Shown here: piece after piece, positions 3,880 through 59,820 of the stretch | Layout: every line of letters begins with the position of its first letter | Numbering within the stretch: the stretch's first letter is position 1 | Program-made: the position numbers and the translations under genes | Sequence record: NC_055781.1 | From: Escherichia phage p000v | Reading direction: 5' to 3' (one strand) | DNA length: 64,000 nucleotides | Notes under the pieces: model-generated | What the model saw: only the letters and a program-made list of their open reading frames with translations | Told to the model about the DNA's origin: nothing | The model's database searches: none

Positions 3880-3925
3880 TGTACAACCAAGGATGGTTGG
3901 AGTATAATGAATCTATCTTAACTAG
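3877..3925 (+). repeat. repeated early-promoter cassette (copy 1 of CAACCAAGGATGGTTGGAGTATAAT...CTATCTTAAC)
   Basis: Near-identical copy at 45146-45190 and a diverged copy at 45701-45730. Confidence 0.6.
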
Positions 3926-12201: not shown

Positions 12202-12256
12202 TAGTTTATGATGGTAGGAAGAAGTGTTATCTTCCTACCAATTTGAGGAGAATATC

Positions 12257-12496
12257 ATGGAACAAGAATTAGACATTATTACATCGAAAAAACGTCTTGA
12301 AGTTGTAGTGAACGGCTCAACTATTAAGTTTGTATATGACACTTTAACTGATGCTATTACCGTTAGTTGTGGCGGAAAGGCTTTTAGTCTAGATTCTACT
12401 GAAAACAAATACCCGTTCTATAAAGGTATCTTTGATATGGGTGTTGATATCAGTGTTCGTCAAGCAAACTATTTACATTATCTTATCACGAAATAA
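12257..12496 (+). CDS. hypothetical protein
   Basis: ATG with RBS GAGGAGAA. Confidence 0.45.
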   Translation: MEQELDIITSKKRLEVVVNGSTIKFVYDTLTDAITVSCGGKAFSLDSTENKYPFYKGIFDMGVDISVRQANYLHYLITK

Positions 12497-12500
12497 CGCA

Positions 12501-12531
12501 CAAACTCTTGAGAGCAGAGTATAATGCTCTC
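12501..12531 (+). repeat. repeated early-promoter cassette CAAACTCTTGAGAGCAGAGTATAATGCTCTC (copy 1)
   Basis: Identical 31 bp at 57446-57476; -10 TATAAT flanked by inverted repeat GAGAGC/GCTCTC. Confidence 0.6.
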
Positions 12532-12562
12532 GTTGGATAATAAAATAACAGAGGAAAATAAT

Positions 12563-21567: not shown

Positions 21568-21586
21568 TGGGACTTCGGTCCCATTT
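21568..21586 (+). promoter_or_regulatory. hairpin UGGGAC-UUCG-GUCCCA (terminator or RNA stability element)
   Basis: 6 bp stem with UUCG loop, only 3 T after. Confidence 0.4.
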
Positions 21587-34010: not shown

Positions 34011-34029
34011 GGAGACTTCGGTCTCCTTT
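34011..34029 (+). terminator. hairpin GGAGAC-UUCG-GUCUCC + UUU
   Basis: 6 bp stem with UUCG loop right after gene 41. Confidence 0.55.
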
Positions 34030-34467: not shown

Positions 34468-34515
34468 GTTTACTTCTCCAGTAGTTATGTTATTATAGAT
34501 CTATCAACTACTGGA
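34456..34515 (+). promoter_or_regulatory. early promoter embedded in palindrome (TCTCCAGTAGTT ... AACTACTGGAGA)
   Basis: GTTTAC then ATGTTATTATAGATCTATC flanked by a 12 bp inverted repeat; related copy at 2255-2287. Confidence 0.45.
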
Positions 34516-34522
34516 GAACAAA

Positions 34523-34840
34523 ATGAAAACCATCGATTGTAAAGCAGAATTTAAGATTTTTTATCACGGTTCAAGTAGTTCAGCTAACATCGAAAACATG
34601 CTTTGTCCTCCTGAAGAAACAGGAGTTCTGTCTGAAACCGGACGTAAGAAAAACTTGAATCGTGTATTCTTTACTGAAGATATCGGTTTAGCAAAGATTT
34701 ACGCAGGACGAGCAGCACGCTCTTATGGAGGTGAACCACGTCTCTATCGAGTAATTTCTCCGGTAGATGTAGTTCAAATGAATGATACTAAAGGTGCTAC
34801 AGTTTATCATGCTGAATGGGCATTTTGCGAGGAAATATGA
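34523..34840 (+). CDS. hypothetical protein
   Basis: ORF track 105 aa. Confidence 0.5.
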   Translation: MKTIDCKAEFKIFYHGSSSSANIENMLCPPEETGVLSETGRKKNLNRVFFTEDIGLAKIYAGRAARSYGGEPRLYRVISPVDVVQMNDTKGATVYHAEWAFCEEI

Positions 34841-35526: not shown

Positions 35527-35775
35527 ATGGAATTATTCGTGGCTAGTTCAGTAGCAGTTTTAATCGCAGGTATTGGTTCAATCATCATTTACATGTTGCC
35601 TTGGGTAATCGCACTTATTCGTGGCACAAAAAGCACAACAGCAATCTTCTTTGTATCTTTACTCTTTAACTGGACGATGATTGGTTGGATTGGAACTTTA
35701 ATTTGGTCTATCGTTGCCGAAAAGAAATCTGCTCAGCAGACTCAACAAGTAATTATTATTCGCGAAAAAGAATAA
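35527..35775 (+). CDS. membrane protein (two TM segments)
   Basis: Hydrophobic throughout. Confidence 0.5.
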   Translation: MELFVASSVAVLIAGIGSIIIYMLPWVIALIRGTKSTTAIFFVSLLFNWTMIGWIGTLIWSIVAEKKSAQQTQQVIIIREKE

Positions 35776-35838
35776 ACTTGTTTACATTATAGATGGACTA
35801 TAGTATAGTAGTCCTATCAAATCAACTAAGGAGTTAAA

Positions 35839-40325: not shown

Positions 40326-40789
40326 TGGATGCTATGTTATTTAAAATGTACTTGCTTGAAGCCAAGTCGTTTAAACATATACCAGTAGAAGATAAGACTC
40401 CACTAGAAATAGCTATTCTCATTAACAAAAGTCTAAATAATCCGCAATATATCGTAGAAGAATTCTGCAAATTGCAGATTCCTAAAGGTTACAAAATTCG
40501 TGTAGAGCGAGTTGGAGCTATTACTCGTTCTAAAAATTCTCCGTTTAGTCTTGAAGAAGGCATAAAGGACTTAGGTTATGAATCTACGGAAAATGCCGTT
40601 TATGTGAATCCTGAAAAGCGTTTAGACTTGTTTGAAAAGCGAGACCATAAGTATTTTGCCAAAAAATACTTTATTACATCATTAGCAGATTTAATCCATT
40701 TGCAACGAGCTATTTGGAAATTTTTTAAGACAAAAGGTGTAGCGCTAGAAACATTCTCCGAGCAGCCTAGTTTTTATTTAGGTGAATAA
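40325..40789 (+). CDS. hypothetical protein
   Basis: ORF track 154 aa. Confidence 0.5.
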   Translation: MDAMLFKMYLLEAKSFKHIPVEDKTPLEIAILINKSLNNPQYIVEEFCKLQIPKGYKIRVERVGAITRSKNSPFSLEEGIKDLGYESTENAVYVNPEKRLDLFEKRDHKYFAKKYFITSLADLIHLQRAIWKFFKTKGVALETFSEQPSFYLGE

Positions 40790-40790
40790 T

Positions 40791-40970
40791 ATGGACCTTA
40801 TGAGTATGTTTGACGAGCCTGAAGTTGAGGCTCCTAAAGTGCATCGTAGTGAACTTGTTGATGAACTAGATAGTATTATACAACGACACGGCTTTAGTTT
40901 ACCTGTTGAAGCCCTGAAAGACCTTGCCTCTTATTATGACGACCCTCCACCATGGAGTCCTTGGAAATGA
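40791..40970 (+). CDS. hypothetical acidic protein
   Basis: ATG right after upstream stop. Confidence 0.4.
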   Translation: MDLMSMFDEPEVEAPKVHRSELVDELDSIIQRHGFSLPVEALKDLASYYDDPPPWSPWK

Positions 40971-41317
40971 AAGAGAAATTTAAAGAGAAATTCTTACTAG
41001 AAATCAAGGAAAAAGACTTTGAGACATGGTATCGAATGGTGAAAGGGTTGACATTGCTTTTTAAAGCATCCTTATTCATGTTAGAACAACCTGGTCCTGA
41101 TGGACCTTTAGTAGGAAAGCTTAAAAAGTAGTTTACATTCCCTCCTCTCGTGTTATGATAGGCTTATCTTTAAATGGAGGTCTATCATGACATGTCAATC
41201 TGAACTTCAAGAACGCGAATACCTAACAAAATCATTCATTTGAAAATGTTGAATTTTTAGTGTACAAACTCTACTGACGATGATACTATACTTTTATCAA
41301 CCACAGGAGAAACCTAA

Positions 41318-41926: not shown

Positions 41927-42079
41927 CTGGATTGGAATAACCGGATGGAACTCAGAACCATTATAACACATAAAAAATTAAAGCATTTTATGAAAAAAGA
42001 GTGTACACTACCTGAGGGCATGATATTATAGACCTATCAGCTAAATGACCTTAACGTCCGTAAGACAGAGGAAAATATT

Positions 42080-45145: not shown

Positions 45146-45190
45146 TACAACCAAGGATGGTTGGAGTATAATCTTTCTATCTTAACCAAA
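45146..45190 (+). repeat. repeated early-promoter cassette (copy 2 of the 3877-3925 element)
   Basis: TACAACCAAGGATGGTTGGAGTATAAT...CTATCTTAACC shared with 3877-3925. Confidence 0.6.
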
Positions 45191-45698: not shown

Positions 45699-45760
45699 TG
45701 TTGTACATCCAAGGATGGATGGAGTATAGCGAATTCAATTTAAACAAAGAGAGAGAAATT

Positions 45761-46216
45761 ATGATTACTATTGGTGAAATTAAGCGTGTATCGTCTGCAT
45801 CTCGTTCTAAAGCTGCAGGTCGTCTAGTTGAAGTTGTCGGACTTCGTACTAATGGTACTGGTCGTGTTAAAGAAGTTAAAGTTCGAATCATTCCTAGTTC
45901 TGGAAAAAGTGAAACTCAGTACGCTTACGTAAGTCCTAAATTCTTGGAAACTCATGTGAGCGCTCATTTTGCTTCTACTGAACCTAATGTACAGTTCAAA
46001 TGGGCCCTTTGCAAAGGCGTTGAATTCCAGACTGATAAAGAATTTGATTTCATCGACGAATATGGTTATCCAAGCAAAACTGATATCATGTGTGGCTTCA
46101 TTAGTGACCAATGGGTTGAAGATGGTGAAAAGTTATACAATATCGTATTCTTAGGTGACTTCCGAGTTGTTAAAGAATCTGAAATCACTCGCTATGTATC
46201 TCCTCGTAAAGCTTAA
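45761..46216 (+). CDS. hypothetical protein, paralog family member 2
   Basis: GFISDQWVEDGEKLYNIVFLGDFRVV; RBS AGAGAGAGA. Confidence 0.55.
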   Translation: MITIGEIKRVSSASRSKAAGRLVEVVGLRTNGTGRVKEVKVRIIPSSGKSETQYAYVSPKFLETHVSAHFASTEPNVQFKWALCKGVEFQTDKEFDFIDEYGYPSKTDIMCGFISDQWVEDGEKLYNIVFLGDFRVVKESEITRYVSPRKA

Positions 46217-46645: not shown

Positions 46646-46704
46646 AGTTGTTTACTTCTCCTCTGGTTTTGATATTATAACCATATCAACCAGAGGAGAA
46701 TAAT

Positions 46705-47229
46705 ATGTTAGTTTACCGCGTAGAACGTAGTTTTTGTACTCAACGTGAATCATTACCAGGAGTTGCTATCGAAGACGGTAAAGCCGTCAGAATTTGGGAA
46801 ACCTCCTGGAATAAAGAACCTCGTTCGCCATACGGTTGGTCGGGCACCGACAACTCTGAAGAAACATGGGAGTTCCTTGATAAGCATGGAATACTCTCAG
46901 GTAACTTCTACCATCACGGCGACAACTATAATGTACCTAATCGTCCTACAGTAAATGAAGACAAACTCCTTGAACAAAATATCTTAAGATACTATAGAAT
47001 TGAGCACACATTTGAATTGAACGAAGATTGGGCTCAAGGGTTCTATTTTGGATTTGAAAGCGTTGACGCGGTTTATGCATGGTTTGATGACCAGGTGGAT
47101 GTTGAACTCTTGAAAGCTAAAGGATACTACATCGCGGTCTATGAAGCACCTGATTTCATCCTCGGAAGTTGTCAATTAATGTTTAGACGTTCATTGGCAG
47201 AACAAGTTGATTTTATTTTGCTAAAATGA
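46705..47229 (+). CDS. hypothetical protein
   Basis: ORF track 174 aa; RBS GAGGAGAA. Confidence 0.5.
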   Translation: MLVYRVERSFCTQRESLPGVAIEDGKAVRIWETSWNKEPRSPYGWSGTDNSEETWEFLDKHGILSGNFYHHGDNYNVPNRPTVNEDKLLEQNILRYYRIEHTFELNEDWAQGFYFGFESVDAVYAWFDDQVDVELLKAKGYYIAVYEAPDFILGSCQLMFRRSLAEQVDFILLK

Positions 47230-47286
47230 TGTACAACAACTATGGTCTATGATACTATAGACCTATCAAAACAAGAGGAGAATATT

Positions 47287-55836: not shown

Positions 55837-55859
55837 GGGGACTTCGGTCCCCTTTTTTT
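55837..55859 (+). terminator. rho-independent terminator GGGGAC-UUCG-GUCCCC + U7
   Basis: 6 bp GC-rich stem, UUCG loop, TTTTTTT. Confidence 0.65.
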
Positions 55860-56177: not shown

Positions 56178-56654
56178 ATGAAGGTTAAGATCGCTGATAC
56201 TGCTCGGTACTCGTTGAAACAAGATCCAGGTCAAATAAAAGAAGACGTTGTTCGACGTTGTAAGGTTGCAGTCTTTGCAGAGTATGTAGTAGCAAATTGG
56301 CTAGACGGATATGTTAATAAAGGTAATGAAGACGTAGAAGACCCGTACACGTATGCATGGGACGTTTTAGCTCATCCTAAGTACTGTGGTCTACGCATAG
56401 AAGTAAAGACCCATCAGATGGATTCGAAATGGATTTCGGTTACCACAGGATACAGTGGTGATTATCCGGGTGGTAACGGAATCAACATAGGGCCCTTCTT
56501 GAACCATCGAGTCGCTGACTGTATTATTATATTGAATGTCAAAGAAACCTCACCTGACGTCTTCTCTTATTCTATAAAGTTCGTGGGAGACCATGAAGAC
56601 CTAAAGAAAATCGTCCGCAAGAGCAACTACAACGGATGGTATCTTCATCTTTAA
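56178..56654 (+). CDS. hypothetical protein
   Basis: First ATG after upstream stop; tracked ORF extends 5' into previous gene. Confidence 0.45.
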   Translation: MKVKIADTARYSLKQDPGQIKEDVVRRCKVAVFAEYVVANWLDGYVNKGNEDVEDPYTYAWDVLAHPKYCGLRIEVKTHQMDSKWISVTTGYSGDYPGGNGINIGPFLNHRVADCIIILNVKETSPDVFSYSIKFVGDHEDLKKIVRKSNYNGWYLHL

Positions 56655-56722
56655 TTTCATAAAAGTGTTTACAACTAAGTAGGACTATGATATAGTAGTC
56701 CTATCTAAAAGAGGATAACATC

Positions 56723-56986: not shown

Positions 56987-57237
56987 GCTCTAAAATGTGG
57001 ATCGGAATATGGTTGCTTAGTATCCCAATGATTTGTATAATATTTTCAATTGTGTTGAGGTACTTATGAAAAATGCACTTCTTATTGTACTAAGAACAAT
57101 TTGTGATACGGGTTTTTACATTGCATGTTCGTTCACTGGAACATGGTTGGCTTTAACATATTTTAATGTAATTTAATTGTTTACAACACAGTAGGATTAT
57201 GGTATAGTAGTCCTACTGAAACATGAGGAATACAAAA

Positions 57238-57438
57238 ATGGCTAAGCTTTTTAAAGATGTTGAAATTGGTGAAAAATTCGTCCTGAATAATGGACAGCAG
57301 CTTATTCGTGTAGCTTCTATAGCCGGACAAACTCATAACTGTATCGCCCCAACGTGTTGGACTCGATTCTTTATTGAAGATGACACTGAATGTTTAACTG
57401 TTGAAGAGCTTTTTGAACGTTCTGATATAGCCGAATAA
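57238..57438 (+). CDS. hypothetical protein
   Basis: ATG with RBS GAGGAA. Confidence 0.45.
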   Translation: MAKLFKDVEIGEKFVLNNGQQLIRVASIAGQTHNCIAPTCWTRFFIEDDTECLTVEELFERSDIAE

Positions 57439-57445
57439 AATTGTA

Positions 57446-57476
57446 CAAACTCTTGAGAGCAGAGTATAATGCTCTC
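57446..57476 (+). repeat. repeated early-promoter cassette (copy 2 of the 12501-12531 element)
   Basis: 31 bp identical to 12501-12531. Confidence 0.6.
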
Positions 57477-57514
57477 ATGGATTACAAAAACATTAATCAA
57501 TTGAGGAAATTAGC

Positions 57515-59726: not shown

Positions 59727-59741
59727 GTGCATTTTTCTCAC

Positions 59742-59775
59742 AAAACAGTTTACACGTGCTTCAAACATGATATTA
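59742..59775 (+). promoter_or_regulatory. candidate early promoter GTTTAC-N17-TATTAT
   Basis: AGTTTACA ... GATATTATAAACCTATC upstream of motA. Confidence 0.45.
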
Positions 59776-59820
59776 TAAACCTATCAAAACAAAACAAAAC
59801 AACCGAATTGGAGAAATAAA

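Follow-up and report, generated by a model that had tools for sequence, protein, structure and literature searches.

Two copies of one short element in the genome of Escherichia phage p000v are very probably the cores of PeSL-type cassettes, each of which combines an early promoter for the gene that follows (a gene 55.2 homologue or ndd) with a hairpin that would form in read-through RNA and with a RegB motif; as a whole, this is the best explanation that we found for the repeat. The element is the RB69-like-phage member of the published PeSL / T4 early-promoter class, and its orthologues and a T4 homologue are already in the literature. Its anatomy, its homology, the covariation of its stem and the strand bias of its folding are direct observations of this analysis, and the precise role of the hairpin is our reading of those sequences. 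Coordinates refer to the window, by which we mean the whole stretch of 64,000 nucleotides from sequence record NC_055781.1 that was analysed.

Genomic context of the repeat

An original prediction, made from the letters of the window, had described an identical 31-bp promoter element at 12501 and 57446. The 31-mer CAAACTCTTGAGAGCAGAGTATAATGCTCTC is indeed found exactly at 12501-12531 and 57446-57476, on the + strand in both places, and the identity extends to a 32-mer (ACAAACTCTTGAGAGCAGAGTATAATGCTCTC; Table 1), beyond which the copies are 87% alike over 46 nt. No match occurred in 100 dinucleotide-preserving shuffles of the window, even with three mismatches allowed, and a chance origin of the repeat was rejected. 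An assembly artefact, which the prediction had named as its own refutation, is ruled out as well: 160 phage records match the 32-mer at 99% or more, the same copies are found in more than 150 independent genomes, and CEV1 and four listed LF82-series phages, all independent isolates, share the 76-nt context of copy 1 with 100% identity. Phage 55, the closest relative, carries three exact copies of the 32-mer, the third of them upstream of an e.x-type gene and outside the range of the window. The prediction had also called for a search for further copies, and these turned up in relatives (three in phage 55, four family members in ATK47), the window itself holding none beyond the two.

Each region has matches of at least 98% to RB69-like T-even phages (genus Mosigvirus). 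Copy 1 lies between homologues of RB69ORF075c and gene 55.2, some 0.9 kb upstream of gene 55, which encodes the late sigma factor, and copy 2 lies between an ndd.1 homologue and ndd; both loci are within early-gene clusters (55.x and ndd.x). The downstream reading frames are unrelated, as had been claimed (BLASTP E = 3.4), with their ATGs 32 and 39 nt past the element. The gene before each copy has its stop codon just upstream of the -35 box, directly against it in copy 1, and the 30 nt upstream are 80% (copy 1) and 70% (copy 2) A+T, compared with 63% for the window.

The upstream genes of both copies carry early promoter/hairpin cassettes of their own. The one in front of the RB69ORF075c homologue is at 12205-12250 (GTTTAT...GTAGGAAGA-AGTGTTA-TCTTCCTAC), and the stretch from 11.0 to 12.6 kb has cassettes at nearly every gene.

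Table 1. Features of the two cassettes and of the genes that flank them
Feature	Position	Strand	Remarks
Upstream ORF, RB69ORF075c homologue	12257-12496	+	TAA stop 12494-12496
Copy 1, predicted -35 CGCACA	12497-12502	+	Degenerate, 3/6 to TTGACA or to T4-type TTTACA
Copy 1 of the exact 32-mer	12500-12531	+	End of -35, 17-bp spacer, -10, discriminator (-33 to -1)
Copy 1, hairpin 5' arm TGAGAGCA	12509-12516	+	Within promoter spacer, upstream of predicted +1
Copy 1, predicted -10 TATAAT	12520-12525	+	In hairpin loop, last T paired
Copy 1, hairpin 3' arm TGCTCTCG	12525-12532	+	Ends at predicted +1
Candidate RegB/S1 site GGATAATAAAA after copy 1	12535-12545	+	Exact strong RegB/S1 consensus with U at position 4 (GGAU + canonical AAUAAAA)
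Gene 55.2 homologue, 110 aa	12551-12895	+	Shine-Dalgarno GAGG 12551-12554, ATG 12563
Predicted early promoter/hairpin of the ndd.1 homologue	57180-57208	+	Putative source of read-through transcripts
Upstream ORF, ndd.1 homologue	57238-57438	+	TAA stop 57436-57438
Copy 2, predicted -35 TGTACA	57442-57447	+	T4-type variant, also in other early promoters of the window
Copy 2 of the exact 32-mer	57445-57476	+	Sequence identity with copy 1
Copy 2, hairpin	57454-57477	+	5' arm 57454-57461, loop 57462-57469 (most of -10), 3' arm 57470-57477
RegB/S1-like site GGATTACAAAA after copy 2	57479-57489	+	Weaker; U at positions 4 and 5, C at position 7
ndd, nucleoid disruption protein, 148 aa	57503-57961	+	Shine-Dalgarno GAGG 57503-57506, ATG 57515

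Promoter features

The cassette spans about 60 bp and runs from the stop codon through a T4-type -35 box, a 17-bp spacer, TATAAT, the inverted repeat and GGAU with an A-rich block to the Shine-Dalgarno sequence and ATG, the GAGG and ATG being 20-40 nt downstream in both copies. The start point and the numbering were set by the geometry of T4 early promoters, with GTTTAC at -36 to -31 and the -10 box at -12 to -7 (PMC1524935). The predicted +1 is G12532 in copy 1 and A57477 in copy 2, in each case the last base of the 3' arm of the hairpin.

The original designation as a promoter element stood up for copy 2 and in part for copy 1. Copy 2 (TGTACA-N17-TATAAT, -10 at 57465-57470) scores 10/12 in a promoter consensus scan, and its orthologue in RB69 is the predicted early promoter Pe:165022 of ndd. 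Copy 1 has its own RB69 orthologue, Pe:42515 of gene 55.2 (both in Nolan et al. 2006, PMC1524935, Additional file 3), but its -35 is poor and the promoter scan did not flag it. It is the only one of 24 distinct family sequences to lack a T[T/G/A]TACA -35, whereas the RB69 and ATK47 orthologues have TATACA; its -10 box and spacer are perfect and the TGn extension is absent. The promoter of copy 1 may therefore be weak or decaying. The spacing of the RB69 sites to adjacent promoters agrees with that in the window within a few bases, and the sequences were checked. As given in that promoter list, the RB69 sites are promoter consensus matches, with no mention of a hairpin or repeat family (PMC1524935). 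T4 GenBank records yielded no annotated promoter features; promoter-dependent primer-extension stops have been reported for the T4 motB promoter (Durand et al. 2006, PMC1702504), and the T4 homologue of the element is therefore an active early promoter. From these parallels we infer promoter activity for both window copies.

A MotA-dependent middle promoter was rejected, since the -30 region (ACAAACTCTTG) has no TGCTT at the required distance, a MotA box being defined as (a/t)(a/t)(a/t)TGCTTtA centred at -30, 11-13 bp from the -10 box.

The hairpin and read-through RNA

The original prediction placed TATAAT inside a GAGAGC/GCTCTC palindrome, and in copy 1 GAGAGC is at 12510-12515, TATAAT at 12520-12525 and GCTCTC at 12526-12531. 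In RNA the predicted helix has 8 bp (UGAGAGCA with UGCUCUC(G/A)), an 8-nt loop (GAGUAUAA) and three outer pairs UCU/GGA; in DNA letters it reads TGAGAGCA/TGCTCTC(G/A) with outer TCT/GGA, the TCT of copy 1 being 12506-12508. The predicted RNA free energy is -12.6 kcal/mol for copy 1 (z -2.9) and -13.9 kcal/mol for copy 2 (z -4.05), hairpin z-scores range from -2.2 to -4.7, and the hairpin is kept in longer read-through folds of 121-128 nt. An Rfam search gave no match at or above the gathering score anywhere in the window.

The prediction further held that the nascent transcript would begin with this hairpin, and that part was not supported. Because the predicted +1 is the last base of the 3' arm, after the hairpin core, the 5' arm is absent from the cassette's own transcript, and the leaders that start there fold to -1.0 and -3.3 kcal/mol, essentially unstructured and no better than shuffles. 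This geometry and the near-zero leader folds led us to reject a 5'-terminal hairpin on the transcript that the cassette itself starts. By the same numbering, the full hairpin is predicted to be present only in RNA reading through from upstream.

Like an intrinsic terminator, this is a G-C-containing hairpin directly after a stop codon; it differs in its 8-nt loop, its modest stem and the lack of a U-tract (4 and 3 T in the 10 nt past the stem). A canonical intrinsic terminator was rejected, and since there is no U-tract and the hairpin is absent from the terminator scan, efficient intrinsic termination is doubtful. T4 has something different at the positions that full cassettes occupy in Mosigviruses. 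Upstream of its 55.2 (40785-40840, minus strand) a canonical UUCG/T5 terminator stands at the position of the hairpin and is followed by GGATAATAAAA, and upstream of its ndd (166040-166100, minus strand) there is a promoter-less remnant with the hairpin GGCCG...CGGCC and then TTGGAGTAGAAAA. Both the terminator and the promoter-less hairpin fit a role at the RNA 3' end.

Masking of the Shine-Dalgarno sequence by the hairpin was also rejected, as the 121-128-nt read-through folds show no such pairing for either gene, unlike the cassettes at 34475-34517 and 46656-46698. An alternative pairing of ACTCT with AGAGT, pseudoknot-like with respect to the main stem, was set aside because both segments are fixed by the search pattern used to gather the family; RNAfold pairs ACUCU/UCU with the downstream GGAGU/GGA instead.

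The two cassettes of the other kind (34469-34525 and 46650-46707) are early promoter cassettes with 12-bp hairpins, TCTCCAGTAGTT/AACTACTGGAGA and TCTCCTCTGGTT/AACCAGAGGAGA, of -16.8 and -23.2 kcal/mol. In both, the 3' arm includes the GGAG Shine-Dalgarno/RegB motif belonging to the gene that follows (ATG 34523 and 46705). There the ribosome-binding site would, in the folding model, be hidden in read-through RNA and exposed in locally started RNA.

In the reading that we prefer, E. coli sigma70 RNA polymerase would use the -35 box T[T/G]TACA, the 17-bp spacer and TATAAT, with an early start near 12532 and 57477, and early transcription from the cassettes would serve the 55.2 homologue and ndd. 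The inverted repeat would have no effect on the local transcript and would be fully transcribed only by polymerases from the promoter of the preceding gene. The resulting sense RNA would fold the 8-bp (+3) hairpin between the upstream stop codon and the RegB/S1 motif. Its most likely function there is to mark or shield the 3' terminus of the upstream message, whether by attenuation or, after a cut just downstream, by blocking 3' exonucleases; neighbouring gene cassettes would thereby be insulated. Early mRNA started locally would be kept short-lived by a RegB cut within the first few nucleotides of its leader.

Candidate RegB sites

A RegB/S1 site is an unpaired 11-nt GG*A(G/U)RAYARAA in the intergenic leader of an early transcript, and the sequence part of this definition was assessed here. 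The window contains five exact matches to GGAKRAYARAA, against 0.8 expected, all on the + strand; one is the site after copy 1 and the others are at 819, 14968, 34513 and 48561. The candidate after copy 2 has one mismatch (U for purine at position 5) besides the tolerated U at position 4. In the predicted transcripts the GGAU and A-rich site lies at +3/+4, and GGA(G/U) with an A-rich heptamer behind it is the conserved block right after the hairpin.

The T4 motB leader (GGAGUAUAAAA) is a model RegB substrate that is cleaved in vivo, the T4 55.2 leader has one of only two GGAU sites cut in T4 infection, and GGAU cleavage requires a strict A-rich consensus after it (PMC1702504). The T4 55.2 leader contains the same 11-mer as copy 1. 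RegB of the RB69 group has been reported to be divergent, and by analogy with T4 both window sites may be cleaved by the diverged RegB of this phage.

Secondary structure blocks RegB, and the majority of middle transcripts resist it. A bolder proposal is that hairpin, start and RegB site form one designed unit, in which a promoter placed inside the hairpin gives two classes of RNA different fates; we think this possible, if unlikely. Local transcripts would expose GGA(G/U) near their triphosphate 5' end to RegB and then to PNK and RNase G/E, and read-through RNA (delayed-early or middle) would fold the hairpin, with the site occluded or the upstream 3' end protected. Such a unit would offer a general structural reason why RegB destroys early but not most middle transcripts, and would explain the conserved family spacer ACTCT, which is complementary to GGAGU.

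A related but quite unlikely alternative is that the main function of the hairpin is to hide the RegB site (together with the ribosome-binding site where other cassettes are concerned), so that read-through RNA is resistant and only local early RNA is cut. The logic would be that of T4 e, soc, 49 and I-TevI, which provide a precedent for sequestration of ribosome-binding sites (PMC3014915), and some of the predicted accessibilities agree with it. For T4 motB the probability that GGA is unpaired is 0.63 in the transcript's own leader and 0.04 in read-through RNA, and for the window promoters at 34491 and 46673 it is 0.93 and 0.42 compared with 0.00 in read-through RNA. For the two window copies the corresponding values are 0.24 vs 0.25 and 0.38 vs 0.24, which is no predicted difference. 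Here the outer helix, which in copy 1 pairs the GGA of the RegB motif with TCT 12506-12508, is only 3 bp long. General occlusion of RegB sites by the hairpin was thus supported for T4 motB and some other cassettes, and not for the window copies.

Family members and covariation of the stem

The family was gathered from T4, Mosigvirus ATK47 and an IMG/VR scan with the pattern ACAAACTCT-N8-GAGTATAAT, which gave 39 matches at 38 loci, 33 of them true family members; spacer and -10 are fixed by this pattern, and their conservation is partly built in. T4 has a single homologue, upstream of motB (TTTACAAACTCTTGGGACCAGAGTATAATGGTCCCGTGGAGTATAAAA; stem GGGACC/GGTCCC). ATK47 has four members, upstream of ndd, 55.2, an e.x gene and an ORF after pseT.1, with three different stems whose arms are GAGAGC, AGGAGC and GAGAGA in one genome. 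The RB69 arms are CGAGAGA/TCTCTCG, and the arms GGGACC, GGGAGC, GGGGTC and GGGGCC occur across genera. The arm pairs observed are GAGAGC/GCTCTC, GAGAGA/TCTCTC, AGGAGC/GCTCCT, GGGACC/GGTCC(C/T), GGGAGC/GCTCC(C/T), GGGGTC/GACCCC, GGGGCC/GGTCCC, GGGAGC/GTTCCC and GGGATC/GGTCCT. A covariance-model search of the window returned the two copies and one weak, hairpin-less relative (41258-41293, model E about 0.04), an early promoter that has the family's GTGTACAAACTCT and the -10 box TACTAT.

Among 20 distinct family sequences the stem is paired in 98.1% of cells, compared with 34-53% in a control in which the partner was slid. Double-sided changes affect five of the eight stem pairs, in 21 cells of the 20 distinct sequences, counts that include many close relatives, so that the cells are not independent events. 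The non-Watson-Crick cells, read on the sense strand, are 16 G·U and 1 A·C, and sense-strand folds are more stable than antisense folds in all 20 variants (mean -14.3 vs -10.9 kcal/mol). These patterns indicate that the hairpin is selected as a structure in sense RNA. They argue for a single-stranded structure, most simply in RNA made by polymerases that read through the upstream gene.

The strand bias taken alone fits the non-template DNA strand as well as sense RNA, and a hairpin at the DNA level, whether a cruciform or a fold of the non-template strand, could present TATAAT unpaired and alter promoter opening or strength. The -10 box does lie in the loop, and the single-stranded DNA folds to -6.3 and -7.2 kcal/mol (z -2.4 and -3.3). 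Cruciform extrusion is energetically poor for a stem of 6-8 bp with a loop of 8-10 nt, each G·T pair corresponds to an A·C mismatch on the opposite strand, the 5' arm stays duplex in the open complex, and other cassettes of the window have the -10 partly in the stem and not in the loop. We consider this explanation very unlikely.

The original prediction had also noted a potential protein-binding palindrome. Spelled out, this would be a DNA operator at which a dimeric phage or host protein bound to GAGAGC/GCTCTC across the -10 box would jointly repress or activate both promoters. In the window the arms are perfectly symmetrical about the -10 box, and the shut-off of T4 early promoters is incompletely understood (PMC3014915). 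The family counts against such a site: the arms differ among ATK47 paralogues and across genera and yet retain their complementarity, the 16 G·U cells (against the single A·C) break the symmetry of the duplex, the sense strand is the better folder in 20 of 20, and the invariant bases are those of loop and spacer, not of the arms. Since differing arms coexist in one genome and folding is strand-biased, a sequence-specific dimeric DNA site is disfavoured, and we rate the operator as highly improbable.

Proposed exchange between paralogous cassettes

At the 55.2 locus the GAGAGA/TCTCTC allele is present in RB69, ATK47 and phiE142, and the GAGAGC/GCTCTC form, the same as in the paralogues, in the window, phage 55, CEV1 and the LF82 phages. 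The latter form is identical over at least 45 nt to the e.x copy of many Mosigviruses, and the ATK47 and RB69 allele has 3-4 substitutions, some of them compensatory. Cassette type is uncoupled from the gene that follows, T4 having the family type at motB and the window phage at ndd, 55.2 and e.x; among relatives, different ORFs come after the same cassette. The 32-nt identity of the window copies is most simply read as common descent with paralogous cassettes recombining or undergoing gene conversion. A reciprocal exchange involving both window copies would not be viable, because 45 kb of essential genes would be deleted.

That exact identity also suggests recent exchange, and T4-type phages recombine via short patches of homology (PMC2839356); the repeat might then be a recently duplicated or converted promoter with an incidental palindrome and no function of its own. 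This is the least probable of the readings, given that the hairpin is significantly more stable than shuffles, that hairpins recur in unrelated promoter families of the window and that complementarity is kept through five or more independent double substitutions across genera.

Two further loci illustrate the variety of cassettes and neighbours. In six IMG/VR relatives the cassette at the pseT locus comes after Rz1/pseT.1 and is followed by a 160-aa ORF, an unrelated ORF of about 150 aa or, directly, the 99-aa pseT-proximal ORF, with an ORF replaced or lost precisely at the cassette. In the window, the motB orthologue (about 45764; MITIGEIKRVSSASRSKAAG...) is preceded at 45704-45770 by another cassette type, TTGTACA-TCCAaggaTGGA-TGGAG-TATAGC, in which the spacer contains the hairpin and the -10 is degenerate; its sister copies at 3882-3922 and 45146-45186 have TATAAT.

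Relationship to known systems

PeSL cassettes have been described in RB49/phi1, T4/PST and KVP40/nt-1, with sub-classes that include a stem-loop over the -10 box (Arbiol et al. 2010, PMC2839356; Comeau et al. 2014, PMC4122927). Such cassettes recur in hyperplastic regions and have been linked to modular gene shuffling; according to these accounts promoter and terminator activity was shown experimentally for the RB49/phi1 cassettes only (PMC2839356, PMC4122927). The window copies share the composition described there, with an upstream stop codon in an AT-rich stretch and a Shine-Dalgarno sequence and ATG at the 3' end in both copies, a stable stem-loop over the -10 box (8+3 bp, covariation at 5/8 pairs) with G-T stem pairs, and an N17 early promoter; the sigma70-like consensus of the T4/PST group, TTTACW-N17-TAYWAT, is matched by copy 2 and in part by copy 1, with its -35 CGCACA. 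As in the described cassettes, the motif is repeated between small early genes (two copies in the window, three in phage 55, four in ATK47), neighbouring genes vary among relatives, and the cassette type has been swapped between motB and ndd in T4 relative to Mosigvirus.

The likeness has its limits. The groups described in those papers do not include RB69-like phages, the passages on PeSL composition name no adjoining RegB site (PMC2839356, PMC4122927), and compared with the stems described there the window stem is short and not G4/C4-rich, its terminator role being putative. With 45 kb of essential genes between the window copies, excision of a mini-circle cannot yield a viable phage.

The T4 motB leader is a direct homologue (TTTACAAACTCTTGGGACCAGAGTATAATGGTCCCGTGGAGTATAAAA beside ..ACAAACTCTTGAGAGCAGAGTATAATGCTCTCGTTGGATAATAAAA in the window), with the same -35, spacer, -10, hairpin position and GGA(G/U) plus A-rich block. 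It serves another gene, differs by compensatory changes in two stem pairs, has GGAG where the window copies have GGAU, and is present once in T4 compared with 3-4 times in Mosigviruses. At the orthologous RB69 sites, Pe:165022 for ndd and Pe:42515 for 55.2, the -35 of the latter (TATACA) contrasts with the poorer CGCACA of copy 1. The hairpins of T4 e, soc, 49 and I-TevI are likewise expected only in read-through RNA, with a local start inside or after them, but there the internal promoters are of the late class and the stem itself contains the Shine-Dalgarno sequence or AUG (PMC3014915); the window cassettes have an early promoter and a Shine-Dalgarno sequence 15-25 nt past the hairpin.

The element is thus a well-supported example of known biology and does not overturn current understanding. 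It makes a clean statistical case that selection on the stem-loops over T4-type early promoters acts on sense-strand RNA structures, not on DNA operators, adds RB69-like phages to those with PeSL cassettes, and ties a PeSL family to the RegB/S1 site that experiments have defined in the T4 motB and 55.2 leaders; covariation combined with strand bias, and the connection of the hairpin with the RegB site, are useful refinements and no surprise. For annotation, both sites merit the label of early promoter/stem-loop cassette, and for phage engineering such cassettes would be compact, portable promoter-insulator modules and likely recombination junctions.

Other hairpins in the window

A significant hairpin lies across the -10 box in about 10 of 29 early-type promoters on the + strand of the window. 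One repeat family of this kind, GGTCTAT...ATAGACCTATC, is found at 743-799, 2219-2275, 41982-42038, 47212-47265 and 59729-59785, and a second, TAGGACTAT...TAGTCCTA, at 35763-35816, 56650-56703 and 57162-57215; in both, early promoters have the hairpin over the -10. At 21569-21586, 34012-34029 and 55838-55855 there are three near-identical UUCG-tetraloop hairpins, G(G/A)GACTTCGGTC(C/T)C, with TTT 1-2 bases past the stem, which look like intrinsic terminators.
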